A DNA stretch of 54,100 nucleotides, the filler included, from Sphacelaria rigidula (taxonomy: Eukaryota): assembly GCA_964200075.2 (NCBI GenBank). It is 5 parts of 5 records of this genome, joined end to end, with 100 filler letters (N's around TTAATTAATTAA, not from the genome) between each part and the next. Parts side by side here need not be neighbours in the genome. Positions count along the whole stretch, not along the records: positions 1 to 10,741 come from CAXNAA020005995.1; 4 more parts are not named here. The stretch is one strand, 5' to 3'. The notes beneath the pieces were generated by a model. It did no database searches. It was not told where the DNA came from and worked only from the letters and a program-made list of their open reading frames with translations. Of the stretch, positions 1,160-43,773 are shown piece by piece (position 1 is the stretch's first letter; every line of letters starts with the position of its first letter). The translations under genes and the position numbers were made by a program.

Positions 1160-2112
1160 AACCGGCGGGGGGGATGAACTCTGCGACGATGAGTTGGCGG
1201 AAGTGTGGCCGCTGACAGGAAGAGGAATTCCCACGTGCGGCTACCGGCCCAGAGGGTGGGGGACAGTCAACAACCCGCAGAGGCGGCGGAATATCCACTA
1301 CCGCTGGATGCTCCATCACCATCAGCATCATCATCTACCGGCGATTCAACACCGACATCGTCCTAGCCATCTCTCTACGACCGATCAGCGTCTGCATCAC
1401 CATCATCTCTCAGCAGCACATCATCAGTACCTGTACCGTCCTCCAGCAACAGCAGCGATGCCATGCCTGATCGAGATGATGTGCCAGCGCAAACCCGAAA
1501 GGTGCTGAGACAGCTCGAGACGTGCAACGTGGGTCCACATGACGATGAAAAACGCAGGGAGGGCAGGACGCGAGCACGAACTCGGGCGGTGAACCAGCAA
1601 CAAGCGATCGGTTTGCTAACTTCGCTGGGGCTCATCAACGGGGACGAAACCTTGCGTGTGCTGATTGCAGAGCAGAGAACATTGAAGAAGAAGCCGAACG
1701 AGATACCTGCCGAACATGTCAAAGAGCCAGAGCCCACGAAGATTGCCGAAGCCCGCGCCTCTGCACATGCTGACCTTCGGAAGGGGGTTATGAATTTAGA
1801 GTTCGAGGGGTCGCTTGCTGTAGGGACTTTCACCTTGGTAAGATTGTTTATTTTAATGGACGCTAACGCGAGGACTGGACGACGAACAGGCGAGGAGGAA
1901 CGTAAAATTGTAGGAGCTTGCGGTCGAGATTTCCGTTCCAATGACGGTAACGGCATTTCTCTAGTACAATTTGCAGACGGTAACAAGCTTTCGCTGGTCA
2001 ACACGTTCTTTTCCATCCCCAAGGGGAACACCTCGCGTACGTTCAACGATGTTGCATATCGCCCCGCAGATAGAGAACGCATTGACTACATCATCACGCG
2101 GCAAGATCACCG

Positions 2113-2368
2113 GAGTGATGCTACGGTAGGGGTGCACAAATCTGTTCTGGGGTTGGAATTGTTAGTAGCCCTTTATCTCATCCAAAACACGACTTATGAA
2201 ATACCTGAGAGTACGCCAGGGTTAATATTCCAATGGGCTACGGATATCCCGACGGAACTTGCAAACGGGGATGCCCTGACCCATATTCTTGTGCATCTAG
2301 GATCGTTAGGAGCCCCTGAACCAGACAAAATTTTGCGCAAAAAGTGCACCCCTACCGTAGCATTGCTC
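2113..2368 (+). mobile_element. MITE family A, 256 bp, ~25-bp TIR, 4-bp TSD ACCG (possibly Sola-like)
   Basis: TIRs gagtgatgctacggtaggggtgcac / gtgcacccctaccgtagcattgctc. ACCG at 2109-2112 and 2369-2372. Excision restores the LINE frame RQDHRRLVC. Confidence 0.92.
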
Positions 2369-3602
2369 ACCGCAGGCTCGTTTGCAATGTCGCCGTCCAC
2401 CTTCAACCCCCCAACTCGCCGGACTCTGACCACAACATCGTGTGCCCCTCAGTACGGCTCCTTGGTCGCTTCGCACACAACAGACCTAGGCAAATCCCAA
2501 CGGGGCGTACACGGATCGATAGACGGGCAATAGTATCTGACCCCGTCAGACGTGAGCAGCTCACCAAGCTCATCATCAGCGAGCTCGAACAGAGTATACC
2601 TGGTGATACGGTCAGCTCACTGGCTACGCACTTTGCCGACGTACTCTTGAGTGCCGCTGAAAAGATGGTACCCCGTCTGACCCGAAAGCCACGTATACCG
2701 GGGTGGTTCGAGGATGCTGAAATCAGAGCGGAATTCGAACTCGCTTGGATAGAGAGAGAAAGGGCGAGATCAACGGTGAGACTGGGGTCATTTCGAGATA
2801 AACTTGCATAACGCACATTGCGAACAGTATACAAGAAAATAAAATAACAAGTGATCCAAGCTGGGGTTGACAAATATATGGATGTGTATATGCTAGATAA
2901 CTAGAGGAGCATACCCGAGCGGGGGACATGAGAGGATGGTACAGACATCTCAACGGAGGGTGGAGACTGTCTGGACGACCAATCGAGAGTGAACAATACA
3001 GTCGAGATGAGGACGGTAATTGGCTGCGGGACAGAGGTTTGATCAGTGGGAGATGGGAACGGTATTTTTCTACATTGCTGAACGCCATATCGGCAACTAT
3101 CGATCGCAACATCATCGAGAAGATTGCTCAACGACCAATAGCGTTGTCACTAGGAGACCCACCAAGCCCAAGTGAAACCGTGGAAGCTCTGAGAGCTCTG
3201 TCGAACGGCAAAGCAACCGGTCCGGGTGGTATTCCTGCTGAAATCCTGAAGCTTGGACTCAACGGGGAGGCGTCGGACATTTTGTACCACTTCCACGACA
3301 TCGTCTCTGCGGTTTGGACATCTGGCGAGGGGCCGCAAGAATGGAAAGATGTCATCATCAAAGTGCTACACAAAAAACAAGATAGGACCCAGCGTAGTAA
3401 CTACAGAGGCATTTCACTTGTGGCACATACTGCTAAAGTTCTCCTCAAAATCGTAGCCAACAGGCTCGGTGATTTTTGTGAGGAAAGAGATGTCTTCCCG
3501 GAAGAGTAGTGTGGATTTAGGCGCGAAAGATCGACCAGACATGATGTTCGTAGTACGCCGACTCCAGGAGTTGGGACGGGCGAGCAATATCCCAAAATAA
3601 AC

Positions 3603-4907
3603 ATGTGCTTTATCGATCTGCAGAAAGCCTACGACTCTGTAGACCGCACGCTCCTGTGGGAAGTGCTTGCTCGGTTCGGAGTCCCGTCGCGAATGATCAA
3701 GATCATCCGTATGTTTCACGACGGCATGCGAGCTCGAGTACAGCTAGATAGTGGCGAACTATCAGCGTGGTTCGACGTCTGTCAGGGGCTCAGACAAGGT
3801 TGCGTTTCGTCTCCGCTGTTGTTCAACATCTTCGGAGAAGGCTTGGTGGAAGTGATCGTCCAACGGTTTGCGGCGGACGCACCCATCGTCTCAGACTTGG
3901 TCTTTCTAGATGATGCGCCACAAGGTGTCGGCGGTGAACCCGCGGAAGAGACACCACTGGAAAAGGTGCGACGCGCGGTGTGGGCAATGCTTTATGCGAA
4001 CGACGCCGGCATAGCCTCGAAGACCTCAGAAGGCCTTGCTCGAATGATTGCCGTGATAGTGATGACCTGCCAGGAATTTAGCCTGATGGTCTCCGAGACC
4101 AAGACAGAGTCCATGCGCCTTTGGTCAGTGCCCAGTTTCACGGAGGCCACCCTGGATATCAGAGCTACCGGTCAACGGTATAAGCAGACGGGGAAGTTTA
4201 TCTCCCTTGGTGGAGCTGTCAGCACGAGTGCGAAAATGTCCACCAAAATCAACCGCTGTATCAGCGCGGCGTGGGCGCGTATCCGAAAATATAGCTCCCA
4301 ACTCTACGACCGACCCAACGCCGTGCTATCCTTGAAAGTTCGATTGTTCAAAGCGGAGGTGGTGGAAGCTCTGTTGTATGGGTGTGCCACATGGACGCTA
4401 CGTTCTGAGGACTTCGACAGTCTGCGCACTGCTCATCACAAGCTCTTGCTGCGAGTGGTTGGATTCCGCAGGAAGGATCGAAATGGCTACAAGATTCTTT
4501 CGTACAGAGCGGTGCTTGAGATAACCAACTGCGAACGTATCGAGACGACTATCCGCAAACGTCAACTCTGGTTCGCGGCAGCCCTTGTCCGGCAGAAGGG
4601 CACACGCCTCCCCAAGCGCGTCATGAACGGTCGGCTTTCCACACGAGAACCCAAGGAGGTTGGCCGCCCCCCCAAGCATTGGGAGGATACCCTAAAGGAG
4701 AACCTACGTGCGCTAGGAGCTGTCCCGCACAAGGGAGCCCGACAAAAGTGGTTCGGCTACGGTGCAGAGGTCAACGATGCATACGATTGGGTCATTGCGG
4801 CGAAGGACCTGGGCAAAGGGCATTTTGGAGTCGAAAAGGGAGCGGAAGAGTTTGAGGACACGTGGCGACGCGCGGACAAGCGACAATCAGACCAACGTCA
4901 CAAGTGA
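3603..4907 (+). pseudogene. RTE LINE reverse transcriptase and C-terminal region
   Basis: FIDLQKAYDSV, GLRQGCVSSPLLFN, LLYGCATW, RLPKRVM, GRPPKHWED. Upstream stop at 3507-3509. Catalytic motif altered to YAND. Confidence 0.9.
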
Positions 4908-5395
4908 GAGGCTGCTACGTCGAAGGTTGCCAATCGGAAAATCCTGTCCTCTCATACCGGTTGTTGATTATGTCCTTAGTCGGTGGCTCCGCGGTGCCCA
5001 CTGGTGTGTGTCTGCATCTACCCTGCTGCCATGAATCCCCTAAGCTTTTTTCCCCCCTTTTTCCCCATCGTTCCATTGTATTTTTTCATTTCATTTGTAC
5101 TTTCCTCTTGTTTTCCTCTTGCTTGCTTTAGGTCGGCCATTTCTTTCTGCGCTTTGCTCGTGTTGAATTTTTATTACTTTTTTTTGTCACGACTTTGTCT
5201 GCTATGTCGTTCTGTTCGACCCCTCTTTCTTTTTTCTTTTGTTTTCCTGTTCCTAATGTTTTCTGTTCCTTTTTTTTTTTCCTGAGAGCGTGTGTGAATT
5301 CCGTGTTTCTTGTGTACGTCTATCATGAGACCACGGCTGGATCCCTGGGGGGTCAGTTAAATTGCGACAATCAATCAATCAATCAATTAAGATTG

Positions 5396-7231: not shown

Positions 7232-7870
7232 CACACCGTCATTGTAGCGCTTATGTTGGTTCTTGGGATCATAGTGGGACCGCTACTTGCTACCATGCGA
7301 CCAAGGCGATATCGACCCGGAGTTTTCGCTGATACGGAAACAATGCCTTACTCGACGAGGCTAATCGCTGTGACGACCTGACGGTTGGCGTGTTTCGGCG
7401 GAACCGCGGCATTTACAGTGATGGAGATACACTTGGTCTACGCCGTGTGGTCGTGGTGGGACTATGGCATCTGCGTTCTTCCGACCTGCCTCTTCAGCAT
7501 ATTCTTGTATCGTTTTGCTTACCAGTGAGTTGAAGACCTCAGACCAGAGAGACGTCTCTCTGGCCTGAGGTCTTCAACTCACTGGTAAGCAAAACGATAC
7601 ATGGATACGCTGAAAAGGCAGGTCGGGAGAACACAGATGCCACAGCCCCACCACGACCGCATGGCGTATACCAAGTGTATCACCATCACTGTGAATGTCG
7701 CGGTTCGGCCGAAACACGCCAACCACAACGTCGTCCCAGCGATTACCCTCGTCGAGTAGGGCATTGATTCCGTATTAGCAAAGACTCCGGGTCGATATCG
7801 CCTTCGTCGCAAGGCAGCAAGTAGCAGTGCCACTGTGATCCCCAGAACCAATAGTAGCGACCTACATGAC
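7232..7870. repeat. Long spacer-less inverted repeat (arms ~320 bp), centre 7553/7554
   Basis: 7506-7553 and 7554-7601 are reverse complements with 1 mismatch in 48 bp. The outer arms are clearly homologous but more diverged. Confidence 0.92.
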
Positions 7871-8527: not shown

Positions 8528-9109
8528 GACCAGCCACGTGGAATATGGGTCATGGTCGTGGTTCACCGTCATTGTAGCGCTTCTGTTGGTTCTGGGGGAA
8601 CACAGTGACACTGCTACTTGCTACCACGCGACGAAGACGATATCGACCCGGAGTCTTTACTGATACGGAAACAATGCCTGACTCGACGAGGCTGATCGCT
8701 TGGACGACTTTGTGGCTGTTGTGTTTCGGCGGAACCGCGACATTTACGTTGATGTAGATACACTTGGTCTACGCCATGCGATCGTGGTGGGACTATGGCA
8801 TCTGAGTTCTTCCGACCTGCCTCTTCCACGTATCCATGTATCGTTATGCTTTCCAGCGAGTTGAACACCTCAGACTGTACATAATTACGAACAAAGTGAG
8901 AGTAGGATTGGGGTCTGCACCTGACCACAGTACAGGTACAAACAGTACAGTACAGTACTCGTGGTCACTACACCTCGAAGTGATATTGCGGATTTATGCC
9001 AAGGTTAATGATGTTTCCGTGAGATGGAGAGCAGAGGGTACGATTGAGAGTGAGCAGCGATCAATTGGTGAATGAGCCGTTTCAGTTCCGAAATGTCCCT
9101 CCATGGGTC

Positions 9110-10841: not shown

Positions 10842-10980
10842 GGGGGCGGCGGGGGGCGGGGCGCGGGGCCGAGGGCGACGGGGGGCGTGCGCGGGCGTAC
10901 TCATGATCTTGCATGCCACAGTCACCAGTCATCAGACATTTACCTCGCATCCCTACAAAACCGAGACGGAGCAAGCCCGA

Positions 10981-14579: not shown

Positions 14580-15100
14580 CAGGAACCGTGGGTTAGGTAG
14601 GTACCCGGTACAGGTATTTGGGACACATCATACCCTACCGATACCGGTCCGATCGGGTATTTTTAATGGGGCAAACCTACGATACCCACGATACCACAAT
14701 ATTTCGAGACGTCAACACAAGTACCTACCGTACCCGCTCGATCGGGTATTTTCAAACGTCATACCTAAGATACCCACGATACCACAATATTTCGAGACGT
14801 CAGTACGAGTACCTAACGTACCCGCTCGATCGGGTATTTTCGAATGTCATACCTACGATACCCACGATACCACGGTATCTCGAGATTTCAGTACTTAACG
14901 TGCCCGCCCAATCGGGTATTTTCAAATGTCGTACCTGCGACACCTACGATACCACGGTGTTTCAAGATTTCAAAACCCACACCTACGATACCCACGCATC
15001 CCACGGTATGGGATATCCCGGTGAATGCCAGGGGTATACCCGGTAAATACCGGGGGGTATATCCGGTAAATACCGGACGCGATGCATTCCACACGGTGCA
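14580..15100. repeat. ~88-bp tandem repeat array (about 4 units), probably subterminal repeats of a non-autonomous DNA transposon
   Basis: gatacccacgataccac starts at 14681, 14769 and 14857, with a variant at ~14939. Flanks are rich in tacc/ggta motifs. Confidence 0.85.
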
Positions 15101-15719: not shown

Positions 15720-15830
15720 ATTGACTGATTGATTGATTGTCGCACTATAACTGATCACACATGGGTTCAGTCATCGTCGCATGGTAGACGTACCCAAGAA
15801 AAGCAAAATTGAACTACGCGTTCAAGAAAA
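15720..15830 (-). mobile_element. RTE LINE 3'-end fragment with (CAAT)n tail
   Basis: The reverse complement matches 5290-5387 (tacgtcta.catg...cagtt...tgcgacaatcaatcaatc). Confidence 0.8.
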
Positions 15831-17216
15831 CGAAGGAGGAACCGTGCAACTTCATAATCTCCTCAAGAATGCACTGATTGACGGCTGATCCAAAATAGTG
15901 GTAAGCTATACTAATTTAGGGTAGTTATACAAAGGCATTTTTTTTGTGTATTTACCAAACATGTATTGGTTGTTTTACCCCGGCCGGCTTCGTCATTGCG
16001 GATCAGTTTATACTGTAATGCATGACAATCGACTGACCAAGACATTACCGTTCGACTGCGAGCCTGAACAGCAAGTTCTGTGCTGTTGTGACCACACAGA
16101 ACCAAAGAACGGTCGCTGTGGGCACCTCAACACGATCGGCAATACCCACGAAGAACTGGAGCCTACAGTGTAATTGCTCGCAATAGCACATCATGCTGGA
16201 ACGGTGACACCCCAGCGTCTATCTCTTCAAAGGAAAATAAGGTATGCATCGATCAGCAATGTGTTTTCGAAGATTAACGTTGTTTGTTGATTGATATCTG
16301 GAACCAGGCATGCTGCAGGCATGTGTAAAGAGGATGTGCCTGCCCTCAGCTGCATGCGTTATGGATCGTGGTTATACACTGTCCTCCACTGAGCGTCTAC
16401 CCTGGCTCCCATCGAGCGTGCACCGATGTCAAGGGAATTTAGTCGAAGTGTATCGGGTTTGTGTGAGTTGGACGGGTTTGGGTTGAGTTGAGTTGGAGGG
16501 GGTTTGGGCTGGCAACTTTGGTCTCTTGCTGTTTTTCCCGTGTGCTTGCTGAACAGTCGACGATACCGGATACATGCAACCATTGATCCATCGTCCACAT
16601 TTACATTTATTATTCTCTCCATGTCGACGAGAACCCGCCCGTTCGTTCATCACTTTGTAAAGATACCAGAATGGGCAGGGGAACCAAATTTACGGCAAAG
16701 TGTCGTTCTGCGCGACCGCTTGTAGTATCGTCTAGTGCTCTGTCAACCTGTTTTACTGCTGGGCGTAGGATATACGCTCGCCCAATGCGCACTACGATAC
16801 CTTGAGCTATTTTGTGGGGGGGCAAGTGCAGGGTTCCTCCCCCACCATGAGAACCAGTTGTGGAGATGGTGGCTGCTCTGTCGTGTGTAGAGAAGTTATG
16901 CCTACCTGCGTATCCCCTGTGGCGTGCGTTGTTAATTTGGTACATGTCACTAGCCTAGGCGGCTGCCCGTGACACACGGAGCCAAGTTGAAGGGGGGTGT
17001 TCCAAGCTGCAGCAGCAGCAGCCTTTATGCAGACGGGGGGCATGACTCTATTCTGACCGTTCTCTACTTGTTTTGCCGGTGCAAAAACGCATGAGGTGAC
17101 GGGTGTGGCTGACGCGCCGAGACAAGCAGCAATCCCTGCGAGCTAAAGATCGCACATACAAATATTTCCCCGCAGCCATTTGCCGTCGCTGCAGTGCCCA
17201 AGATTCCCCCCCCCCC

Positions 17217-17896: not shown

Positions 17897-20235
17897 ATGC
17901 AACAGGGTCCGCAACAGTCTAAGAGTCGACGGCAGGGGCTCGTGTACGGAGGGGTGCAAACCCCTCCAAGCCTTGCATTCTCTCCGGTATGCCGGTATGT
18001 GTATTATAATGATCTGAAGGTAGTGACAAAAATTATGGCGAGGAACCTGTATTCACACCTCGCCTGTGTGTGTTTTGTTGTCGCGGACATCGCGCGCCTC
18101 TGCTCTAACTTCGCCCCCTCCCCTTTTGGCGAGCTTTTGTGCCAAACCGGTGCTTCTCTGCTGCCCTTGTGCTTTCTACGTGAAGCAAGAGCGCGCTTCG
18201 TTGCTATCGCACGTGTTCATGAGAACCGTTACCGCTGATGTTATCAGAGGTACTGTATCTCAAACTCGAGGTTCCTGGTATATTTCACAGTAATTTACAA
18301 ACATACGGGAAACCTCGAGTTTGAGATACCTCTATTTATCACTTTAGCCATTCCGCCCCCACACTGCCTTGAGCAAAGCTTCTGGAACGCTTGAGGCGTC
18401 TACCCCACGTGACTACCACAAGTCAATCTGACCGAGCCTCCGGGTAACCGGTGCTCAGACCCCCTTGCGGGGTACGTGCTGGGTCCGGTTTCCTGCCTTC
18501 GTGAAGAAGAAGAAAACAATCACATTCGTCGCCATGTTCCAGAAATCTATATTCTAGCACCCGTGGTCACCGAAGTAAAGGTACATGTTGTTCTGTGATT
18601 TCTGCAAAATCATTGTGTCTGATGAGGGACTGTCTCATGAAGTAAATATGATGGATGGCTACGGTGACCTAGCGAGAAAATGCGGCTGATACTTTCTATA
18701 ATACGATAACCCCCCCCATGAAGAGTGGCTGGTTTGTGGAGGCAAAATCTATACATGAATCGACATGGAAGAAGCTGGGAACAATGAGCAGGTGGGAATT
18801 CGAATGCTTGGTTTCGTTTTCGCCCATGTCGCCCATATGAGGCGCTTCTTGCAGCCTGAAACCGAAATTCAGGGACTGTATGACCACAGTTTTGGGCTGG
18901 TTCGGGCGCGCGGGGGGGTGTACTCACTTGTTGCTTGCCTTGGTTGTCTGACCATTGACCACGCATCCCTTTCGAGACGGAGCACCGTTCCTACTCCTAA
19001 TAGAGAGACTCCTTCAACATTCCGGCGCTCATTACGTTTCTTTCACATACAGTTGTTGTTGTTGTTTTTGTGGGGGGGGGATGTAGTAGAAAGAGTCGGC
19101 CTAGCTTAATCTGCTCAACACTCGTCATGAGTCCAGGTGTGTGTGATTTTGTGTATCATCTCATCTACTCTGGTGGACACCAGTCTACACCTTTCGGTAG
19201 TTGTGGACCCTTCAGCTCGTGTCACACAGGAAGGAGGCCAGCACAGGAGTTGCGTTTTTCTTGTGTGCTCGTTGTACTACAACTTCCTTGAATCTACGAG
19301 TATGGCACAGACAGTGACGTTGACGCAATATTTGGAGAGCAGAAATTACATGAACCTACTCATCACAGCCTCGTCACAGACAGCGTCTTTTGTTGTTTTT
19401 GTCTCGCCGCACTTTTTTGCGGCTCATTCTTTTTTTCTATAAGACAGCGCCCCTGATACCGGAATCTCGCGTGAAATCACATATAGGGTAGTTCATTTTT
19501 CCCCAACCCGCAGCCGAATTTTTAGGTTTGAATAGGTACCCGGTTTGAGTCTAGACTTCCTCCTCACTTTGGGAAGTTTGAGGTGCCGATAGTCCCGGGT
19601 TCTCGCGAGCGTTGCCAGCACGCGCTTGTACTCGGGTCAGTGTCGTGGGCAACCCCAATCTGAGCGCTGCCGACGTAGCCTCTACCCTGGGCACCCTTAT
19701 GTATCCCTGCCCCCTGCCCAAGGGTTCTCGGTATACTTCGGGTTGAGGCGACAGCTGGGGTTGAGGTTGATGTTCCAGCAGTGCTCAAACAAACAAAAAG
19801 TGTCGTGTGTTTAACCCTTCGACCGCGATGTGGGTAGTCCTTCTCGATCATGCGTACTTTTTTCACTTCAAATTGATGCCAATTCAGTAGGTGAACCACC
19901 TACCCTCGCGGTCCAAGGGGTGACCATGGATTTCACGTTTAGGACGAATCACCAAATTCACGATTTCTTCGGCCTGATTCCCTAAAAGGGAGAAAAAAAT
20001 GGACCGCTGGTCCAAGGGATATCCACGCAACTTTTGCGCCATTCCACGTGTCCGGGCTGCTTGTAACTGGCTTGCAACGCCGAAAACGAAGCCTAGGGAT
20101 TGATTTGTACGATTCGAATTAAGTGCACTAAAACCAAGTAATTTACAAAAGAATCATTGATTCGTCCGATCCTTGATGGATTTCAGTGGCGGGTTGAAGG
20201 AAACATGAAAGCGCGACAGTCAATGAATCGTGGAC
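17897..20235 (+). CDS. Tentative multi-exon gene of unknown function (exons 17897-17986, 18673-18791, 18855-18899, 19448-19487, 20187-20235)
   Basis: aaaaATG start. All GT-AG junctions are phase-compatible and give an open reading MQQGPQQSK...FSP|RENAADTFY...TMS|SLKPKFRDCMTTVLG|CAPDTGISREITYR|WRVEGNMKARQSMNRG. Some splice sites are weak and no homology was recognised. Confidence 0.3.
18246..18333. repeat. Short hairpin or mini-MITE with a perfect 19-bp stem
   Basis: gtatctcaaactcgaggtt (18255-18273) / aacctcgagtttgagatac (18311-18329). Confidence 0.85.
18912..18983 (-). mobile_element. Short (~70 bp) copy of the C-tailed element terminal module
   Basis: Near-identical to 37185-37274. Related to 36789-36850 (opposite strand), 10893-10972 and the G-run ends of 858-1159 and 38729-39030. 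Confidence 0.75.
19138..19260 (-). mobile_element. Old truncated copy of the tRNA-derived SINE (3' part)
   Basis: catcta.tctgg...ctacacctttcggta...gtcacacaggaagg...cacaggagt matches the other SINE copies. Confidence 0.7.
19815..19919. mobile_element. piggyBac-like mini-MITE (~100 bp)
   Basis: TTAA|cccttcgaccgcga ... tcgcggtccaaggg. Internal aaattgatgcc motif as in the other copies. Confidence 0.8.
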
Positions 20236-20654: not shown

Positions 20655-20725
<71 letters not shown>

Positions 20726-21284
20726 CGTATCTGTGTGTATCGTATCTGTGTGTTGTCGTCCCATCTATTCTGGACGCCGGGCTACGCCTTTCGGTATGTG
20801 TGGGCGCATCAGCCGGGGTGACACAGAAGGAAGGCTAACACAGGAGTTTTTTCTTCTTCATTTGTTTTTAGTTCTCCACCTTCCTTCGGCGGTGCTTGCC
20901 TTTTATTTTTTAACGCGAGAGGAGTACAGCATTCCCTTTCCCTCGTCGAGTGTAGTCCATCTGGATCATGCATATTTTTCCAATTGAAATTGATGCCGAT
21001 TGGACACATGACCTACTCTCGCTGTCTAAGGGTTAACCCTTTTGGGACCGGACTCCCCGAAACATGATGCTTGCGCGCAGGGGCCTTTTGTGAATCGGCA
21101 TCATTTTCAATCGTTTCCAAGTAAAGATGATGCCGATTCACGGAAACGCCCCTGGATGTAAACGATATGTTTCTGGGAGGTCGGTCCCAAAAGGATTATA
21201 TAACCCTTAGACTGCGACAGTAGGTCATCTGTTGAATCGGCATCAATTTTACCCGAAAAATATGTGCACAATCCAGATGGACTA
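20642..21284. mobile_element. Tandem cluster of piggyBac-like MITEs (20642-21032, 21037-21195, 21204-21284)
   Basis: Units start CCCTT and end AAGGG (or aagga) and abut at TTAA-like sites. The first unit carries a SINE insertion and the third is cut by a TA-flanked element. Confidence 0.85.
20658..20949 (-). mobile_element. 5'-truncated tRNA-derived SINE with long (CA)n tail, nested in a piggyBac-like MITE
   Basis: Matches the 3' part of 22261-22620 and 34449-34835. (GT)n tract at 20658-20722. Confidence 0.85.
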
Positions 21285-21581
21285 CGAGCTGGGCCAGCTA
21301 AGAGTAGGCGCGCACCTCGCTCAGGCGACGCACGGCGAGATATTAGGAGTTGGACGCTGAAATTTTGACAGCAGCTTTTTATGATCGAAATGCAAAAGAT
21401 CACGAGAGCAGCAAAGAGAAAAATGAAATTTGAGGAAGTTATGGGGATTCGAAATCTCAGAAAAAAAAACTAGAAAATGCCATAAGTCCAGGAAAAAAAG
21501 GAGAATCTGCAGCTGGACTCGTTACTTATCAGTTCCTTGGGTGCAGAAGGTCTTCCTGAAATTTCAGTTCAAGACTCGACG
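21285..21581. mobile_element. Tc1/mariner-like non-autonomous element (left end), cut by the contig end
   Basis: TA|CGAGCTGGGCCAGC, the same TIR as 26858-27441. Confidence 0.6.
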
Positions 21582-21681: not shown

Positions 21682-21886
21682 TGTGATTGGGTAGGTCGCT
21701 CGAAGACTTATTTTTTATTATTTCACTAACACAGGGTCAACCCTGTGTTAGTTGGGGTCCGGTCCCAAAAGGGTTAATAGTGTAGTACTTTGTAAACACT
21801 CCACACTACTTTGTACCCTACTGTGTACATTGGTGCTACTGTACTGTTGCAGTGACCACCGTTCGAGTCGTCAATCTGCATCTTGA

Positions 21887-22241
21887 TCCTTAGACCGCGA
21901 ACGTGGTCCATCTGGACTATGCATACTTTTTCTCAAGTGAAATTGATGCCGATTTAGCAGGTGACCCTTGGACGACGAGAGTGGGTCATCTCTTGAATGG
22001 GCATCAATATTCACTTGAGAAAATGATTCGTGGTCCAGATAGACTACCCCCGTGGTCTAAGGGTTGACCCTTACACGGCGAAAGTAGGTCATCTGTTGAA
22101 TCGGCATCAATTTCACCCAGAAGAAGTATGCATGATCCGGATGGACTACCCTCGCAATATATGAGTATATGGATAATGCATCCCTTTCTCAAGTGAAATT
22201 GATGCCGATTCAGCAGATGACCTACCTTCGCCGTCGAAGGG
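21887..22241. mobile_element. Cluster of about four piggyBac-like mini-MITE units in mixed orientation
   Basis: Repeated CCCTT.gac.gcga ... tcgc.gtc.AAGGG ends at TTGA/TTAA-like junctions. Recurrent gaatcggcatcaattt / aaattgatgccgatt core. Confidence 0.82.
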
Positions 22242-22260
22242 TAAACCAGCTGCACTGCGT

Positions 22261-22620
22261 GCCGGTCGCCCCGGCGGCTCAGTTGATAACCTCGAAGCCT
22301 TCTGACGGTTGGGTCTTGGATTCAAATCTTGGAGCGATCTGGAATTTTTTTCTCACACTATGCCCAACAGTACGTGGAGAGCGACTATATCGTGGGTACA
22401 CCAAATTCGACTGAACGGTCGACGAGGGAAATGGGACTGCTGAACCCCTGTCGCAACAACAAATAAAGGCAAGCACCGCAGAAGGAAGTTGAAGTACTAA
22501 GGAAAAAAAAACCTGTGTAGACCTTCCTCTTGTGTGACCCAGGCTAATGCGCCTACGTATACCGAAAGGTGTAGACCGGCGTGCAGAATAGATGGGACGA
22601 CGAACACACAACACACACAT
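22261..22620 (+). mobile_element. Full-length tRNA-derived SINE (~360 bp) with CA-rich tail
   Basis: Head ggtcgccccgg...ggagcgatc with A-box-like GGCTCAGTTGA and B-box-like GATTCAAATC. Flanks cactgcgt / cattgcgt are TSD-like. Homologous to 34449-34835. Confidence 0.85.
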
Positions 22621-23160: not shown

Positions 23161-23161
23161 C

Positions 23162-23204
<43 letters not shown>

Positions 23205-23330
23205 CTTCACATTAAAAACCGTTCCGATATCTGCGCGGTACCTTCGTACTGGGCATCATCTGATGCGGACGCCTTCCGTGGTCACAAGATATCTAAATAT
23301 CTATAATGAGGTATGGGGAAATAAAACAAA
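23161..23330 (-). mobile_element. Non-LTR 3'-end fragment with (AAC)n tail
   Basis: (GTT)n run next to the conserved GTGACCACGG...AATGTGA motif on the minus strand. Confidence 0.6.
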
Positions 23331-25149
23331 ACCAAAAAACCAAAATAGACCTAGATTAAAACTCACAAAACGCGATACAAGCAAAACAGGGATAAATAAT
23401 GAAAAGAAGAAAGACTTGTACGAAAGTATTTTGTATTTTTCAAAGTACTACACTACTACTATCGCCATCATCCATCACTCAGGGCGGTACTTCCCCCCCC
23501 CCCCTCTTACCAAGCTCCTACCTGAGAGTGAGGTTTTGGCGACGTGGGGGGCCCTGGTGCTGTGACTTCCTGATGGGATACCTTGTGTTGCTTATTATTA
23601 GGGTCAGAAAATCCGACAGGTGCAGACAAGAAGGACGGACTCTTTCGGGGTGTTTTCCGCGCCACGCCACTGTTGGAAGGGTCGCGTCCTGTGACATACA
23701 ACTGGCGAAAAATTAGATGCGCACCCGGGTGCACCATCAGCACCCTCGGATAATGGCAAAACACATGCGGCTGGCCTGTGCCGCATGACCACCCCGACCG
23801 TGGTGACTTGGATCACACTTTCAATCGGAGCCAGCACAAACAACGCAGAATATAGTCAGCAGTACGACAGTAACATGATGTCGCACTCTCTCTTATCTCT
23901 CACTGCCCGTCGCGTGGTCGCGTCTGCGTGACTTCCCACTGCCAGTTTGAACACGAAAAAATGATCTGCGTTGTTTATTTCAAAGCTCAAATTTTTCTGC
24001 TCGCTAACTTCCCATCTACGCATGATGCACACGACAAAGTATGAGGGGAGAAGAGCTGCCGCTCTGTGTACCCAGAGAGGTCCAGAAAACCCAAGGTAGA
24101 GAGAGTGGCATGTACGGGAACAGGCAATATTATGGCGACTCTATTATGTGCTTATGTTTGGTAGCTGTGTTGAGTCTACCGGTACCGCCATCTATGTGCA
24201 CCATACCGTCTCTACAGCAAAATGAGCGATAACCTACAGACAAAAGGATACATTATCAATGAAGGTATGAAAGCCCAACTACAACACAGGATTGTACAAT
24301 GCTTTACAGACAGTACAGTGCAGTGTCTTCCTCTTCTCTTTCCCTCTCCCGCGGTGTTCCTCCCTTCGTCTACGGGCATCACTGAAGGATCACATTCCAC
24401 CAACCCCCCGGGTAGCGTGACTCCTTTCTGCGATCATCTTTCAATTTCAACCTCTTGATCGCCAGGGTGGGCATTTCTGAAGTGAAAATTATCCCCGCGA
24501 AAGAGAAGACCCACCAGCGTGGGTACTGCTAGCTAGCTTCATCTGAACCCCCTTGGAGTAGATTTTGTCATTTTGTCTCGCCAGTCATTATCCAGAGGTT
24601 GGAGCTTGGTTCCCGCGCACACTTGCACGGTCAGGCCGAATCAAATCGTGATTAAACTCATGTTCATCATTTCAACGAATAAATCCTACAATTCGTACAT
24701 CATTTGTAATTTACACAGATTTTGAGCTCTTGAGTCGTGCAGTACACCGTCAACGGTACCTGTTTCCTACCTTCCGACAAACGCGGTAAATCAGGGGCAC
24801 ATGTTCATCCCCTGTTAAAAAAAGCGGAATGAATCGATTGTACATGCTACCCACACTTACAATAAGGCGTGAGTAGCATGTACATCTATGCCATGCGTAT
24901 GACTCGTGCGGGACGAAAAGTCGGCACATCGTTGAATCCTCTCATCTCATGGGCCTTGCATCAGGCGTACTTTTTCCCCAATCTGTGTGCGGTTGAGATG
25001 ACTGCACTGCACACGTTTTCACCGCCGGGTGCATGCCGGACTTACAATTTATACAGATTGAATCCTGTCATTTCATGAGGAGTCAACTCGTATAAATCGT
25101 GATTTGTCCTTATCTGTGCATACTTGCCGCAGCTGTTTCTCAGGATATT

Positions 25150-25281
25150 TTTCCTAGACTTCAGCGAGTATTTTAGATTTATTTTTTTCTTGGGCACGTC
25201 TATCATGTGACCACGACTGAACCCCTGGGGGTTCAGTCAAGTGCGACAGTCAACCAACCAATCAGTCGATTGATCAATCAA
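25150..25281 (+). mobile_element. RTE LINE 3'-end fragment with degenerate (CAAT)n tail
   Basis: cacgtctatcatgtgaccacgactgaacccctgggggttcagtcaagtgcgacagtcaacc matches 5311-5387. Confidence 0.85.
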
Positions 25282-32521: not shown

Positions 32522-32600
32522 TTACTATTATTATTATTATTACTATTATTATGTTCGTCACATTTGCTCGATCTCTCGAACCCGTGGTCACAGAGTACAA
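32522..32600 (-). mobile_element. Non-LTR 3'-end fragment with (AAT)n tail
   Basis: Minus strand reads tgtgaccacgg-gttcga gaga tcgagc-aaatgtga-cgaacataataat. Confidence 0.6.
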
Positions 32601-34448
32601 GTAGCATACCCTATGTGGCTCTAATGCCCCTTGATCTCCTACGTAGTACTTCACCGCCTTCTACCGACTCTGATAGCTTATACCTGCGAGAAAAACCGTG
32701 ATATTTTTCCTCCGAAAGAGGGGAGTGATATTACGCTAAAATGCGCTGAGAAAGTGTATACAGTACTCTGATCATGGGCATTATGCCGAGAAAAATAGTC
32801 ATAGCCATACTCACTGTAGGCGTGGGGAAAACACTGTTTTGGGCTTTAACATCACTCTTGTCGACGATCTCATGTATAGAATCGGCTGTTATTAAGATGG
32901 CAGTCGCGGCACGTTGACATCACGACCCATCCCTGCAGGCTGTGTTCACGTCACGCGCCGCTGACACAAAGACACAGGCTTCATACATCAGCTGCCTAAT
33001 CAATGCATGGACTGGCGCAAGGACACAGTTGATTGCATCATCCGCTACGTGTGTGCTCGGACAGTCCAACATGACAGCAAGCAGTAAAATGGCACACCCC
33101 TCCAGACTGCAAATCACAGGCATTGCAATCCACAGGGACTGCAAGTGGTGCGAGACGTGTTGCAGCCTGTAGCCAAATGATACCAAGCCGAAGGGTTTCA
33201 GTATAATCGCATGCATGATTGGAGCAGTGGCAGAGGACAGGAGATCCTGGATTGATGACCTTTTTCTATGTGGCCTCTTGCTGTCTGGCTCGTGATCTGT
33301 TGAGGATCACTGCGAGGTAATAACAAGTTAGAAGAAATGACTTGTCAAGCCTGAGTCCAGTGATACTGGAGGAGTCCCTTGTTGATAGTCCTCTTGTCCA
33401 GATCGTCTGGCAGAGGCTGCAAGCCCTAAGGCGACCTTGTTGGCGTGCATGATCAGCCTCCGTGTTGTTCAATCAACGTGCCCTGAAGGTGTCCATGTCC
33501 AGTGCACTCCTTCGCTTTGTAGATATCAACACGCTACAGTACACTTGTGTGGATACTGACAGTACAGGACGGTATAGTCACTACAGCAGAAAGCACAGCA
33601 CAGTACTACAGTACCGTTATTCCCGTGAATGGGGCCCCGGGCACTATACATCGGGAAAGTGTACCGGCCAACTACACAGCCAGTTGAATGCAGAAGAAAT
33701 GAAACCTAAATGGGCCAATCAGTATCAATCACAAGTACACGCGTCACTCGAGATGCTGGTGGTGCTCATCTCATACCAAATGTACTATCACTATAGTACA
33801 TTCTAACACAAACCTGTGACTGACGTTGATGTACCTGTACACAGGGTTACAACAACAGGAGGATAGAAGCTACTGCTCGTGATGTTGTGCCCCTCTTGTT
33901 GCAGTATGTTGCTGTGCCTACCTTTCAAGGCAAATTTCTCGGCAACAAAACAGAGGATTGGACTGCGGTTTGATGCGTGCGCTTCCCACACACCAGAACT
34001 AGTCGGTGTGGCCACGGAATTCCGTAACGCGTGCCGCAGAGGCCGCAGGCAGCACTCTGCCAGCCGCTGCACCAAACACAAAATGTACTAAAAAACGCGT
34101 TTCCTTCAACGTTTTGGGGGCTTTCCGGATCCGCTGTGGCAAATTGAACAAATCCGCAGCTACTCTGACTAGGTGTAGTGTGTGTGCGGGGGGCTGTGAA
34201 GTGCCACAGGCCGGTTTGCTCCCTGCCTCGAGAAAAACGCGATGGAAGAATTACAGCTGTCGCATACTAAAACCTAGGTAACTTGGGATGGGGCGTATGT
34301 TCTATTCGGCAGAGGTTCGACCCAGGTCCGACCAGTCCATGACGTCTTCCTTATTCCTCATTATCCTCCCGCGTTTTTTTATTGTTTGTTGGACCACGGA
34401 TTCCGGGTCGCTAGAGCCCGCATTCACGGGCATAGCAATACATCGTAT

Positions 34449-34835
34449 TGTGTGTTGTGTTACGTTGTGTGTGTTGCGGGCTCATCTATTCTGGACGCCG
34501 GTCTGCACCTTTCGGTATGTGTTGGCGCACCAACCGGGGTCACACAGGAGGGAGGCCAGGCCAACACAGGAGTTTTTTTCTTTTTTGTTCGTTTTTAGTT
34601 TTTCGTTCTTCACCTTCCTTCTGCGGTGCTTGCCTTTATTCTTCATCGCGAGAGGGGCTCAGCAGTCCCTTTCCCTCGTCGACCATTAAGTCGAGTTTTG
34701 TGTATCCACGGCATGGTCGCTCGCTACTGTTGGGCATTGTGCGAGAAAAAACCCCAGGTCGCTCCGAGATTTGAACCCACGACCCAACCGTTAGAAGGTT
34801 TTGAGGTTACCCATTGAACCCCCGGAGCGACCGGC
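34449..34835 (-). mobile_element. Full-length tRNA-derived SINE
   Basis: The reverse complement starts gccggtcgctccgg...GGTTCAAATC...ggagcgacc (B box) and ends in a CA-rich tail. Colinear with 22261-22620. Confidence 0.87.
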
Positions 34836-36788
34836 TATAGTAGTACCATAAAAACAGTACAGTAAGTAAATGAACGTACCGCAGTACATGACAGTGTTTG
34901 TATGGGATTTTGTGAAGAAACTGGCGCAATTGACAATCTTCAGATCGTCCAAGTTTACCACGACGGATGCCTGTAGATCATCGCCTCCTGCGTTTGACGC
35001 ACCACCAATTGACGTAGTTTTTTTTCACATAAAATCTATACATTATGGGCAAAACACTGTGTTCATGCTGCAGACCCAGTTCACCCAGCGTGGCCGCCAC
35101 ACATCGGTATGCCATCGTGCCCGCAGCGCACGGATGCACAGCAACGCTTTTCATACCAGTCAACGCGGTAATTTATCACCTAAACGTCACCTTTCCAGCC
35201 AGAAATCAGCGCCGGCGCTCCCGCCTTGAACACAGCATTCCAGCGGTGTCGCGTGTCGGACCGGCACGCCTTCGTGAGGGGCTCCCCGCTCGTGTGAACC
35301 AAGTCTACTTTGCGTCGTGTTCCACCCCATATGTTATACTATAATTCTTGTATGCGGGCATCTTGGCGTTTTTTTGTTTTTTCGTGACACTGACATAATA
35401 TATCTCATACGCACATACAAATGTGCCTGTCGCGTCTATACAGGCGTGCATCGTGAGGCCGGAGGGGTCGCCGCGGTATTCTCGTCTTCCAGCTTACGAA
35501 GAAGCCTCGTTTGAGCAATCCGGTGCCGAGGGGGAGCAGTTTTTCTCGACGTCAACTATTCGGGTCTGGTCCTCCTCTAGCGCCGGTTTCATTTGTGCGA
35601 TGGTCGGTGTCGTCTGCACCGTGGCCGGGTTTAAAGCGGGGAAACGCGCGGGAGCTCGGTACAAGTGTCTTTATCCGCTTGTACTCTTGTAGTCATAATT
35701 CACGAAAAAAATAACAGTATAATAGTAATACATTTACTTGTAAAGGACACAAGAACGTGACTGTTGTTACGTTTTTCGGGTGTTGAGATTTTTATTTTTA
35801 TTTTTGATTTGATCTATATATGTAGTGTCCCGTAGTCAGGCGGGGGGTCGTGATTGAAGACATTATGCTCGTTACAGGAGGCGCCTCCATGTACACACAC
35901 ACATATATACATATCCATATATGTATTTGTAGTAGTAACGAAAACTCGACGAGTATCAACGCGGTGCGAGAGTGTTGGTCATAATCCAATCCGCGGTACC
36001 AAATGATAGGCAGTTTCCAGGGGAGAGGGGTTCATCCCTCGAGACTGTCATACGAACTTGTCGCAAGGAAGGGAGGTTGAAAAAGCCTGACGAAACATGT
36101 ATAAGTAAATATATATACTGTACACATGTATGTATCGTATATCAAGTTGAAGATCACGATATGTTGTGTTTCCGTTTGTTCATACCGCTTTTTTTTAGTT
36201 CCAGCGATTTCTTCTCTGCTCGTTGGCTCGCTGTGTGATTTTTATTTTTTTTTGTGTTTGTGGTGTCGAACATTGCTCTTCTCTTTGCTTCATTGGTACA
36301 CGCAGCAAGGAAGGGGGAAAGGGGGTGATGACTCTGCGATTTTCCCCTTCTTCCGCGATTCATCTTTGTTGTTGCGTTTACTCTCGTGGCTCAAGTATTC
36401 TGTGGTTCTCTGTGGTTTTTTACTTCAGCTCTGTTGCACACCCCTGCACTGCATGCACAACGTTGTCCTGTCCGTCGCTCGCGTGACCAGGAGGTTGGTG
36501 TGCTCGAAGCCTTTTCTTGCTCTGCGGTGTGTTTCCGGGACGTTTTTGTGTATATTCACTCGCTCGTGTCGTTTTCCACTCTGAACGCAGCACGAGTACA
36601 GTAAGAGTTTGTTGTACGATGTCTCGGTTTGTTTCCCGATGGGGTATTTATTTTATTGTTCGTTCTTGTTTTTTTGCAGAAGGTGCTCGGTTCTTGGTTC
36701 GGTTCCCCCACCCCCATTCGCGCTCTTTTTGTATGCCATTGCGTATGCGTATGCACGCATACGTATGCACCCCTTGATCCCCCCAAAG

Positions 36789-36850
36789 ATATGCGTGGTC
36801 AACGGTCAAACGGCTAAGGTAAGGGACAAATGAGTACGCCCCCCTCCCCC
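36789..36850 (+). mobile_element. Short C-tailed module copy
   Basis: atgcgtggtcaacggtcaaacggctaaggtaagggacaaatgagtacgccccc is the reverse-complement homologue of 37185-37274. Confidence 0.7.
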
Positions 36851-37184
36851 ACCCTTCCTTCCGGCCATATATGCGTCCAATTGTTCGGAACCCTTGAGCA
36901 ATGGAGGCCACAGGTATATCCTAGGTGGCCAGCGAGGAAGATGTAAACGCCCATGTGGGTTGAACACTTTGCATTGGTGTGGATTGAGGATCTCAGAAAA
37001 TGCGGTATGCTGAATATCAGGGGTGGTGCCCGCACACACGGGAATTTCTCGACTCAAGCGTCGGGCGGTTTGGCCTCGAAATTCAGCGTGCGATAACGTT
37101 CCGAAAAGAGCTCTGGTGCCCAAGGGGTTAGTTGTGTCGACATGGACGTATCAAGTGTTTCCTTCTTTTTTGTTTCTCAGGAAC

Positions 37185-37274
37185 GGGGGGAGGGGGGGAG
37201 GGGGGGCGGCGTACTCATTAGTTGCTTGCCTTAGTCGTTTGACCATTGACCACGCATCCCTTTCGAGACGGAGC
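37185..37274 (-). mobile_element. Short C-tailed module copy
   Basis: G-run followed by gcgtactcattagttgcttgccttagtcgtttgaccattgaccacgcatccctttcgagacggagc. Confidence 0.75.
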
Positions 37275-38728: not shown

Positions 38729-39030
38729 GGGGAGTGCACTCATGATGCATGCCGTATTCACGTGACGACCATTGACCTCGCATCCCTACATAGCTGGGAC
38801 GGAGCACGTCGGGTTTTCGCCGGACCAGGCTCGTAACCAATCACCAAGCGCGAAACGCCGTCATGTATTCGGCAAGTCGCATGAGAGGTGAGCTGTATCC
38901 TGCAAAGATTGTTCCGCCCGAAGCGTACTGATAATCTAGAATATGGATGGCAGATTCAAATGTGCTGCTTCATTTTCTGATGTCGCTACCTCCAGAGACA
39001 GCCAGGAGTTACACTGCCTCATGGGTGTCT
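38729..39030 (-). mobile_element. Full-length copy of the ~300-bp C-tailed SINE-like element
   Basis: Colinear with 858-1159, including the identical end cactgcctcatgggtgtct. Confidence 0.8.
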
Positions 39031-40579
39031 CACGATTCAAGCACTGTGTAGTACGATCATCCCCCTTTGGGCGGAGTTGAGGTTCCTCACCCCGCACTAC
39101 ATGATCTAACTCGACCACCATCATGGTCACAACGATAAAAACTTAAGAGCACAAAAAGAGAGGTAACCTGGTTGCCTAGCTTTCGCAGTTAGTGGCGTGT
39201 TTTACAGAGTCGTTGCCAACCGACACCCAACTCTCAGAAGGAACAAATAACAGCGGATCCTGAAAAATGGGGTCCATCTCAAAAATGAGATTGAAGTGGC
39301 ATTTCTTTCTTGCAGGAATGACGCGAAACACTTACGGCCGAGCGAAGCCATCCCCCCCCCCCAAATGTCCGCAGGGGCTAAGCAGCTTTAACCAGGTCCC
39401 CCCCACGCAGGAGCTGTCNNNNNNNNNNGCGTGTCGATGACGATATCACCAGAGAGAAGCAACGACAGAGAGGAAGCTCCTCGCCCGTGTCCTTTGTGTG
39501 TCCCCGCTCGGCGATTACCAATTTCTCGAGAGACTGGCATCATCCGTGTTACTAGCATGTACCAAATTTTCCATGTGCCAGAACATCGAGATGCGGAGAG
39601 ATTCCCTCTCATCTTGCCTGTCGAGCTCACCGATTAGAACATCGATTTCTCTCTGCCTCTCTTTTTGGACAGGACGCGCTTCTGTGCGCTGAAAAACATG
39701 TTGAAAAATAGGGCAATGTTCCTGACACCGTTATTACTGATCTCTGTCACACACATGCTAGTAGGGGCGATGGTGCGGCGACAACAACAAATGTATCCAA
39801 TTTGAACTTAGAGGGGTGTTATTCATCGTTGATTTTACCCGACATGTATGTGAGCGACCCTCTGGGTGCCCAACGACAATAGCATGCGAGATGCCAGTTG
39901 GGCGGGGGGGGGGGGGGGATGAGAAAACAAAAACTTGTGGGGACCCTTTTCACCTGCGGGGGGGAAAAAAAAAACCATGGGAGGGGTTCAACTGTTGCGA
40001 GCGTGGTGCAGAGGGGTGCATCCATGCTGCAATCTGGAGCACGCGCTGGCCGCGTGAACCCCTCGGTACAGTAGCTTTCAAGAAATAATTCCGATGTGAC
40101 GAGGTCACGCATTACAACCTGGGGCGAGATATGAACCCACGAAGAACAAGGGTGCTCTATGATCAACCACTGGTCGTTGCATTTGACACCCACGCTATCA
40201 ACCGCCGACCACAAAGGTCTTGTGGCTTTCAAGCAACGCTGGCGGTAGTACGGCAGGCAAACCCGATCATAGCTTGCTTTCGTCGCTCTACAGGACTGGC
40301 TGGCGTCTGCACAGAGGTCGCCCGGCGAAGGAACATGTACCAAATTTCGCAACCTCTACAAAAACGAAACAGTTCGTTTTCCCCAACTACGTATGTTAGA
40401 AATGGCTCTTGTGGTCTGAAGGAAAGTGGCCGCATTGGGTCCGTCCACACGTGCGAAGATACTGTAAAACAGCAATACCAAACTTTCCTGACATGCGGAT
40501 ACCGCTATCAGTACAGAACGAAACAGAAATTGACAGTTAAAGTTTTTATTAGAAAGCGACTGGCATTATACCGTTTGTA

Positions 40580-41069
40580 GGTTGGAAAACGCGGAATTTC
40601 ATAGAGGACAACCTACTTGTTTTCCCGTGAGTGTTAACTGCGATGGCAAAATCTCTGTCGTCCTTCTTTTATACCTGGCGGGAGGACAGGGAAGCCACAG
40701 TTCCTCAGACCACGGAGTCTTTTTAATCATGTTCACGTTGTCAGGGGATTCACTCGGAACCCCTTTGTCGTGGTCGCTAGAGTTGGCGCAATGGCGGTTA
40801 AGCCAAGCAAGCAGACAGGCTGCTTCGGATTGTAGACAGAAGATAGTGTTCAAGGTGCTGCTTGTGGGCAAGACAACACAAACAACCCACCGGGGTATAC
40901 GGTCAAGCGAGAAGAGTGCTTCATGTATAACAGCTGCTATCCCACATTATACGCCCCTACATCAGACCAAACCTTCGTGACCGGTACCTGCGATCCCAAC
41001 ACTACATATATAAAGTCTATACCATACGCAGTGTTGAAGAGCACGGCTCCACAGCCTCATTTCCTAACA
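40580..41069 (-). repeat. 3' LTR of the Copia element (~490 bp)
   Basis: Minus strand: PPT ttgagggggcg, then TGTTAGGAAA ... TTTCCAAC(C). The terminal CA is mutated, so the left boundary is less certain. Confidence 0.7.
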
Positions 41070-41220
41070 CGCCCCCTCAACGCAAGTGTAACTCTAAACC
41101 CTTCTCACTCCCCTTAATGCGAATGCGTACTAGTTTCAAACACCCACATCAGTACAACCGTCCCAGCACCCAAGGACGAAATAAGAACTCAAAGCTACAA
41201 CCAGGCTATATTCATATTTT

Positions 41221-42772: not shown

Positions 42773-43013
42773 TGGGGTTGGCGTGTCGGGTCACAATGGG
42801 GACGTAGAGAGGGAGCGACTGTTCCGCGTGTCATTTCCGAACGAGCCAAATTTTGTTCTGACGCCCGAGATCCGTCGCCACCCCCCGAAATCATTTTCTC
42901 CCAGCCACCCAGTATCCGTCTGCGGAGCGCCTTTGAAACATTCGGTGAGTGTCATATTTCGGACAAATAAAGGTAGCTCACAGAGACGAATTCTGTACAG
43001 CGCCGTTGTTTAA

Positions 43014-43111
43014 CCCTTAGACCGCGAGGTTAGTCTTCTGTTGAATCGGCATCAATTTCAAGCGAAAAAAAGGATGCCTAATCCAGAAAGACTAATCTCG
43101 CGGTCTAAAGG
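43014..43111. mobile_element. piggyBac-like mini-MITE (98 bp) with exact TTAA TSD
   Basis: TTAA (43010-43013) cccttagaccgcgaggttagtcttctg ... cagaaagactaatctcgcggtctaaagg TTAA (43112-43115). Confidence 0.9.
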
Positions 43112-43261
43112 TTAAGCGTTACTTTGTTGATTGACGGTATTCTTTCGTGTTGGCTCGCCGCCGGTAGTACAATGAGCACGAAATGCAAGAGGTCTGTGAG
43201 ACTGCAGACTACGGGACGGTCTTTGATACACCGGCCAGTCACCACTTCATCGATAAGCGAT

Positions 43262-43361
43262 NNNNNNNNNNNNNNNNNNNNNNNNNNNNNNNNNNNNNNN
43301 NNNNNTTAATTAATTAANNNNNNNNNNNNNNNNNNNNNNNNNNNNNNNNNNNNNNNNNNNN
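43262..43361. other. Artificial contig linker
   Basis: N44-TTAATTAATTAA-N44. Confidence 0.98.
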
Positions 43362-43743
43362 CAACCTTAGCAAGTTGTTCAAGAGCTCCGTGATCTGTAT
43401 AGATGTGGAAAGGCACGTGGAACAAGTACTGTCGAAGCCTTTTTATCGCCCAAGTTATGACTCCGCCTTCGAGTTCGAGTGGACTCCAGTTTGCCTCTTC
43501 CGGGAGGGTTGCGCGGCTGATGTACAAAATACGTCGGACAGAGCCATCCAGTTGAGGCTGATTCAAAACGGCGCCAAACCCATCTGTGCTAGCATCGGTG
43601 TGTAGTTGGAAAAGACGTGAGCCGTCTTGTACCGCATCCCAATCCGGAAAACAAAGAACCGGTTTTTCGGTCAGTGTATTGAGCATTTCGCGGATGGTGG
43701 CTTCCATGTCTTTAGTGAAGACAAACGGGACGTGTTTCTTCAA
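43362..43743 (-). pseudogene. Gypsy RNase H
   Basis: LHTDASTDGFGAVL, NWSPLELE, FHIYTDH. Confidence 0.92.
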
Positions 43744-43773
43744 TAAATCTGTGATGGGCCGGATCCGCTTGGA

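Follow-up and report, generated by a model that had tools for sequence, protein, structure and literature searches.

The window analysed here is a stretch of 54,100 nucleotides from the 244-Mb assembly of Sphacelaria rigidula (27,214 contigs). It is composed of five contigs of about 10.7 kb each, joined by spacers, the first of which is CAXNAA020005995.1. This contig carries a LINE of the RTE type, assigned here to family A, with the following features.

1847–5387, plus strand: RTE-type LINE of family A, 5′-truncated and broken, inserted in a Copia-like pol region (from sequence)
1839–1846 and 5388–5395: 8-bp direct repeat TAAGATTG flanking the family A LINE (from sequence)
2901–4907, plus strand: RT coding region of the LINE (ORFs; RVT_1 match, E=1.4e-16)
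4908–5326, plus strand: T-rich 3′ UTR (from sequence)
5327–5367, plus strand: terminal stem-loop with GAC-CAC, inner helix and A-rich bulge
5368–5387, plus strand: (CAAT)5 tail (tandem repeat)

The 8-bp repeat is likely to be the target-site duplication of the LINE. The Copia-like host shows an rve-like ORF upstream and RVT_2 downstream of the insertion. The RT region contains an in-frame stop at 3507–3509 and more breaks upstream, and the RVT_1 match spans 3510–4904. Among the 120 matches listed for this RT, four carry an organism name, two of them Sphacelaria and two Ectocarpus, in keeping with a brown-algal host. A Copia-like piece at 63–151 recurs in inverted orientation within the LINE at 2113–2201, as a nested insertion or a rearrangement.

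The terminal stem-loop is present in further copies within the window, which belong to the following tails.

25197–25280, plus strand: 5′-truncated family A 3′ end with about 110 nt of homology and a decayed CAAT tail
15720–15842, minus strand: decayed, 5′-truncated family A 3′ end (repeat search and covariance model)
23161–23415, minus strand: 5′-truncated family B 3′ end, motif start at 23285, long apical insert, (CAA)n tail
18520–18570, minus strand: remnant of a family C tail, without the family-type repeat tail
32522–32606, minus strand: family E tail with a GAGA-loop hairpin like that of family G and an AAT tail, severely 5′-truncated

The motif starts at 5327 and 25207 on the plus strand and at 18570, 23285 and 32591 on the minus strand, and a degenerate copy lies at 15734–15790 (minus). 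The six copies listed in the original prediction are indeed distributed over four of the five contigs. One start moves from 25205 to 25207. The feature is real, but its copies are less independent than had been held: those at 5327, 25207 and 15720 represent one family (A), and only the other three belong to the separate families B, C and E. The TTC tail ascribed to the copy at 18570 is probably not that of the family, as six other family C copies among the loci L031–L060 end in AAC-rich repeats; the TTC run is probably flanking sequence. A search of the genome with the pattern GTGACCACGG-N20-50-AATGTGA returned 85 matches and its reversed control none, which indicates that the occurrence of the motif is not due to chance. 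Among 30 loci obtained with the GTGACCACGG pattern, 16 have the motif at their terminus along with an A/C-rich repeat (weakly so in one case), and one is the TTC copy of the window. The expected position at retroelement 3′ ends applies to these 16 but not to the 11 loci internal to a dispersed element, designated F, or to the two embedded E copies. No match was obtained for the window in Rfam at the gathering score. The GACCACG at 8968 was rejected as a motif copy, being part of another repeat.

The family A 3′ end is represented by 3024 first-look candidates in the genome. In all 30 loci that were fetched, this end recurs with CAAT repeats behind it and unrelated flanks. A covariance model of family A recovered exactly three strong sites in the window, at 5317, 25197 and 15734 (E<1e-11); a further hit, at 37545, was weak (E 0.077). 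The copy at 25197–25280 has a perfect 10-bp inner helix and a z-score of -2.6. The basal helix is absent from the MFE structure of the copy at 5327 because of a G>T substitution in its 3′ basal strand.

The association of the motif with LINEs was assessed on 80 non-redundant loci selected by RT similarity, each with at least 1000 nt downstream; loci chosen by their tails were left out, and the tail patterns were derived from the data. A family tail is found downstream in the sense orientation in 68 of the 80 loci and in the antisense orientation in two, and 12 carry no family tail at the threshold used. A simple-repeat run lies within 110 nt in 57 of the 68 tail-bearing loci. Families B, D and G were found by following the RTs and not the tails. 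Family B (2001 candidates) has a CAA tail and a long apical insert, family D a CAAT tail, and family G an AAT tail and a GAGA loop, the latter two also linked to RTs. In families A, B, D and G the motif is located 250–850 nt past the end of the RT coding region, directly 5′ of the short-repeat tail. For family C this arrangement rests on one copy, the locus L041, with a decayed RT end upstream, and no RT was seen upstream of family E in the loci examined. RT linkage therefore puts the motif at the 3′ end of a number of different LINE families (A, B, D and G), beside repeats, as had been predicted.

The RTs of A, B, D and G are 46–52% identical, and each forms its own branch in a FastTree tree built on tblastn rows and rooted on an RTEX-like pair, without labelled references. 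Over the 350 nt of 3′ UTR that immediately precede the motif, eight representatives are unrelated, the sole similarity being a 32-nt T-rich match between B and C. With RTs this far diverged and these UTR portions unrelated, the terminus appears to have been selectively retained. Neutral inheritance, or a recent swapping of tails between families, is a very improbable source of this pattern. Tails do move, as is seen from the E-type tail that element F has acquired in its interior. However, only about 15 nt of anchors are common to the families, while the inner parts (22–73 nt), the repeat units and the UTRs differ. Furthermore, the tail type follows the RT family without exception in the 68 loci (A 42, G 12, B 9, D 5), and the B tail is conserved together with its RT in L277, a family B orthologue from a metagenome with 81% RT identity.

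The family A locus L206 encodes, in one frame of 785 aa, an Exo_endo_phos_2 match (E 7e-4, below the curated cut-off) followed by an RVT_1 match above the cut-off, that is, a single ORF with an APE endonuclease and an RT. The endonuclease match was also obtained in the family G locus L358, and Pfam gave none in the B and D frames examined. We take the labels "RTE" and "RTEX-like" to be provisional, on the basis of architecture, known motifs and tail type in relation to supplement file 1 of PMC12477816. The tails are CAAT, CAA and AAT repeats rather than poly(A), and short 3′ tandem repeats form part of the definition of RTE elements given in PMC3747384.

The core common to the families consists of GAC, a CAC/GUG basal helix of 3 bp, one G, an inner helix and a purine-rich 3′ bulge of 3–6 nt. 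The apical part is free, with 22–73 nt between the anchors. The fourth basal pair, G-U, implied by the predicted CACG/TGTG is not universal, as family A has A and the metagenome locus L281 has C at that place. The inner helix opens with G-U (A-U in the metagenome locus L278). Its second pair is C-G in family A and in the SINE described below, A-U in B, and G-C in C, D, G, L278 and L281. A MAFFT alignment of ten family representatives misaligned the 3′ anchor and was set aside. The pairing of each family's own halves was instead compared with that of swapped halves at equal freedom of bulge length; E, F and L277, not being independent, were excluded. For eight families, the four scores gave 321, 651, 80 and 1132 of 40,320 permutations (p 0.008, 0.016, 0.002 and 0.028), and the six families of this genome alone gave 27, 77 and 56 of 720 (p 0.04–0.11); these values are to be read with the shared ancestry of the families and the choice of anchors and patterns from the data in mind. 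The claim that the upper hairpin varies and yet stays paired is thus supported by the covariation of the inner helix across families.

Among 74 distinct copies of family A, 92.3% of cells pair, compared with 90.2% after shuffling (0/500), and changes on both sides number 17 compared with 6.1 (0/500). They are mostly C-G to U-A (7) and C-G to A-U (8), and the pair with the highest mutual information is a C-G/A-U pair. The number of pairs with a both-side change, 4 versus 2.6 after shuffling, is not significant (91/500), and the two signal-bearing pairs probably represent one event each. No both-side change was seen in the basal helix of the 74 copies, and no covariation signal was obtained among the copies of B, of G or of the SINE. 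The compensatory changes point to a structure that is conserved, with moderate strength, in the inner helix.

It is conceivable that only the primary sequence of the anchors matters, with a protein reading GACCAC and GUG-GA and the apical hairpins being incidental, or that the anchors act in transcript 3′-end formation. The basal helix is invariant across all LINE families and so offers no covariation. The z-scores of 11 representative copies are near 0 (-2.1 to +0.8), their folds not being unusually stable, and in five of these 11 (D, G, E, F and L278, folded with flanks) the basal helix has a probability of at most 0.11. Both versions of this explanation are nevertheless improbable, since the inner helix stays paired through different base pairs across families and family A subtypes, and of the 28 pairs predicted for family B, 27 are also kept in its orthologue L277, one of them through a double change.

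The range of the motif was followed in a metagenome scan, from which 80 loci were kept. The seven closest show 47–80% identity. All three of them whose contigs reach through a complete 3′ end (L277, L278 and L281) carry the motif, which is therefore kept in related LINEs from other samples; of the other four, three lie on contigs that end too early and one, L280, is interrupted. In L280 (3100–4112), the 3′ end of an RTE-like LINE is broken by an element on the opposite strand with inverted terminal repeats. In 12 more distant RTE-like loci no GAC-C(A/C)C was found before the tails. The MFE structures of nine of these 12 (three being one family) show a short basal helix, an internal loop and an apical hairpin beside the repeat, as descriptive folds without a shuffled control. 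The clade control is a single RTEX-like LINE of the same genome (L373), which has 25–29% RT identity, a (C)n end and a different tail. As the distant loci lack GAC-C(A/C)C and the RTEX-like tail differs, the signature is, as far as the sequences tell, that of one RTE-like lineage and not of several clades.

Copies of the RTEX-like 3′ end are present in the window at 18912–18983, 37203–37274, 36785–36854, 896–936, 10937–10977 and 38770–38810. This end has a (C)n tail and its own GAAA-loop hairpin, and it holds the reverse complement of GACCACG. The GACCACG at 18957, 37248 and 36800 was accordingly rejected as the motif.

A related tail is found in a SINE of about 360 nt, for which 3616 first-look candidates were obtained and which is represented in the window by four copies.

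22261–22620, plus strand: full-length SINE with A/B-box head, body, tail with CCC/GGG anchors and (CA)-rich repeat
34452–34835, minus strand: full-length SINE, head called as a tRNA by ARAGORN (34756–34832)
20658–20949, minus strand: 5′-truncated SINE with a long (CA)n tail (SINE comparison)
19139–19262, minus strand: short, 5′-truncated SINE (SINE comparison), absent from the original prediction

The element is short, dispersed and present in high copy number, with Pol III boxes, target-site duplications and 5′ truncations. A and B boxes are present in 21 of 23 heads with one mismatch allowed. The flanking repeats average 5.5 nt versus 4.3 nt for permuted pairs (0/5000) and reach at least 6 nt in nine of 23 copies, and 18 of 60 copies are 5′-truncated. 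ARAGORN called a tRNA in the one window copy and in 0 of 17 other SINE loci, and Rfam gave no tRNA match and nothing relevant for three SINE loci. At L158:1500–1870 a full SINE interrupts the 3′ UTR of a family G LINE that is itself old; the SINE was therefore active after that family G copy had inserted.

A compensatory change from CAC/GUG to CCC/GGG had been proposed for this tail, clearest at 20758–20823. The copy at that place is 5′-truncated, reads GTCACCCC and has an MFE structure without CCC/GGG; the copy at 22261–22620 is the better one. The change itself is seen in the SINE, but only there, and would be a single, weakly supported event: CCC/GGG pairs with a probability of 0.5 in a representative copy, forms in one of three window copies with the register shifted, and does not appear when the SINE consensus is folded. 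A search for further CCC/GGG families gave 50 matches versus 13 in the control, which by inspection were SINE deletion variants and background.

The SINE and the RTE families have only short anchors in common. These lie in register beside the tail. The 5′ anchor matches GTGAC-type family A copies such as L029 at 12 of 13 nt, the 3′ anchor matches family B at 9 of 11 nt (counted by eye), and the one A>C change has its counterpart in a U>G. We consider it probable that the SINE tail is a variant of this element and that the SINE depends on one of these RTE families for mobilisation in trans. On the other hand, its tail may be unrelated to these RTEs and serve another LINE, for example of the CRE type, with the anchor match partly a coincidence. 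The (CA)-rich repeats at the SINE end would fit this, as CRE-1_Ec32 of Ectocarpus is given with a (CA)n 3′ end in supplement file 1 of PMC12477816, and so would the weak prediction of CCC/GGG. No LINE with the SINE tail was found among 60 tail copies of the sampled genome, and a targeted pattern search gave five rows, all SINE-like. This alternative is unlikely, though it keeps some weight, in view of the two anchors in register with their matched A>C and U>G changes.

We propose that the motif is a cis-element at the 3′ terminus of RTE-type LINEs of one brown-algal lineage and is bound by the LINE protein, a reading to which we give a probability of about 0.78. As in stringent-type LINEs, 68 of the 80 loci end in a stem-loop that directly precedes the repeat tail, and by analogy with known stringent LINEs a stringent-type RT-recognition element is the most likely function. 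The original prediction of an RT-recognition element that links LINE and SINE families is partly supported: the motif joins several RTE-like families only, with the RTEX-like LINE excluded and the SINE partner not found. The LINE protein would bind its own mRNA at the terminal stem-loop, where the conserved GAC, the CAC/GUG helix and the purine bulge would be the common determinant and the apical part would be family-specific or dispensable. Target-primed reverse transcription would then start in the repeat tail. What the sequences show directly is the terminal position, the retention across diverged families, the moderate covariation, the 5′-truncated copies and the target-site-like repeats.

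Similar arrangements have been described in other lineages. In plants, RTE LINEs and tRNA-type, Au-like SINEs end in one predicted 3′ hairpin, which covaries through compensatory changes and has been put forward as a retroposition signal (PMC6007223); the RTE LINEs and the Pol III-type SINE of the seaweed may be alike in this. The plant elements, however, have an alignable tail of about 76 nt (distances 0.135–0.362) and an 18-nt hairpin, whereas the seaweed tails have only short anchors in common and an inner part of 22–73 nt. Stringent LINE proteins bind a terminal stem-loop, and UnaL2 needs a bulge in the stem (PMC4176376). ZfL2-1, ZfL2-2 and UnaL2 resemble the seaweed motif in having a bulged terminal stem-loop before a short-repeat tail, and L2-clade tails combine conserved stem recognition with family-specific recognition (PMC4176376). 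They differ in that they belong to another clade and their binding was shown by experiment, while here it is proposed from sequence. Their specificity lies in the loop; the seaweed motif is conserved at its base and has an apex free in length. The hairpin of the maize L1 lineage ME1 and ZmSINE (PMC3747384) likewise has a variable stem with compensatory changes and conserved flanking nucleotides, unlike the present one in its L1 clade and conserved loop sequence.

In brown algae, RTE-1_Ec32 and RTE-2_Ec32 of Ectocarpus are also single-ORF EN-RT elements with (CAA)n ends, and the non-autonomous RTE-N1_Ec32 shares the last 12 bp and (CAA)n with them (PMC12477816). No structure is given for this end there: the main text of that paper does not contain "stem-loop", nor do five of its supplements contain "hairpin", and no tRNA-headed SINE is listed in the part of its Ectocarpus TE library covered here. 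The comparison of these elements with families A–G is by description only and may bear on novelty. Saccharina RTE-1 to -3 are listed without tails in the available part of PMC4421812, and no passage on a relevant structure was found in those of PMC13295347 and PMC11481361. No account of the motif was found in the open literature, with Repbase, Dfam and subscription journals outside the scope. The seaweed tail hairpin is apparently undescribed so far, while the principle of LINE/SINE 3′ stem-loops is already established.

For RTE-type retrotransposons, the motif offers a minimal template signal that can be tested, with natural variants that set its conserved base apart from its freely varying apex. 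In brown-algal genomes it can serve as a marker for the assignment of non-autonomous elements and of LINE ends that are truncated, and a Pol III-type SINE is documented in a brown alga. A more speculative and rather doubtful extension is that RTE proteins read a base-of-stem determinant (a helix of 3–5 bp and a purine-rich bulge), ignore the apex, and that families with half-diverged proteins cross-mobilise. If this is true, any RNA gaining about 15 nt of anchors could be mobilised, such as the SINE and perhaps element F, and the determinant at the base would keep a constant spacing to the repeat tail. Together with the folds of nine of the 12 distant loci, this would amount to a clade-wide minimal template rule unlike the loop-specific L2 recognition.

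Element F is a dispersed element of more than 1.6 kb (its 5′ end lies beyond reach) with a partly duplicated, decayed internal E-type tail. It was recognised in L034, L039, L044–L046, L049, L051, L055–L057 and L059 and accounts, by an eye count, for 36 of the 85 matches of the GTGACCACGG pattern. It ends sharply about 180 nt past the E-type tail with a CAC/GTG hairpin and a short CAACAAT, without a microsatellite, and is possibly a non-autonomous RTE-dependent element. In L055 a tRNA-like stretch was noted by eye about 700 nt upstream of the motif, with a negative ARAGORN result. In L048 and L054 the E-type tail lies inside a longer repeat, of which the two loci share 1.4 kb on the upstream side and about 250 nt on the other.

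The window contains several other repeats. A perfectly abutting inverted repeat of 306 nt (88%) with a third partial copy (7248–7859 and 8595–8875) is MITE-like or a foldback. A dispersed repeat with GAATCGGCATCAATTT occurs in both orientations at 20976–21285, 21882–22247 and 43033–43116, and the GAATCGGCATCAATTT repeats probably mark the ends of non-autonomous DNA transposons. The stretches 39800–43200 and 43306–49500 hold remnants of pol, both Copia-like and Gypsy-like, as well as a long gag/pol region of Gypsy-like type, all labelled by eye from ORFs. An 88-nt tandem repeat of 3.7 copies lies at 14634–14955, and a similar array was seen by eye after element F in L045.
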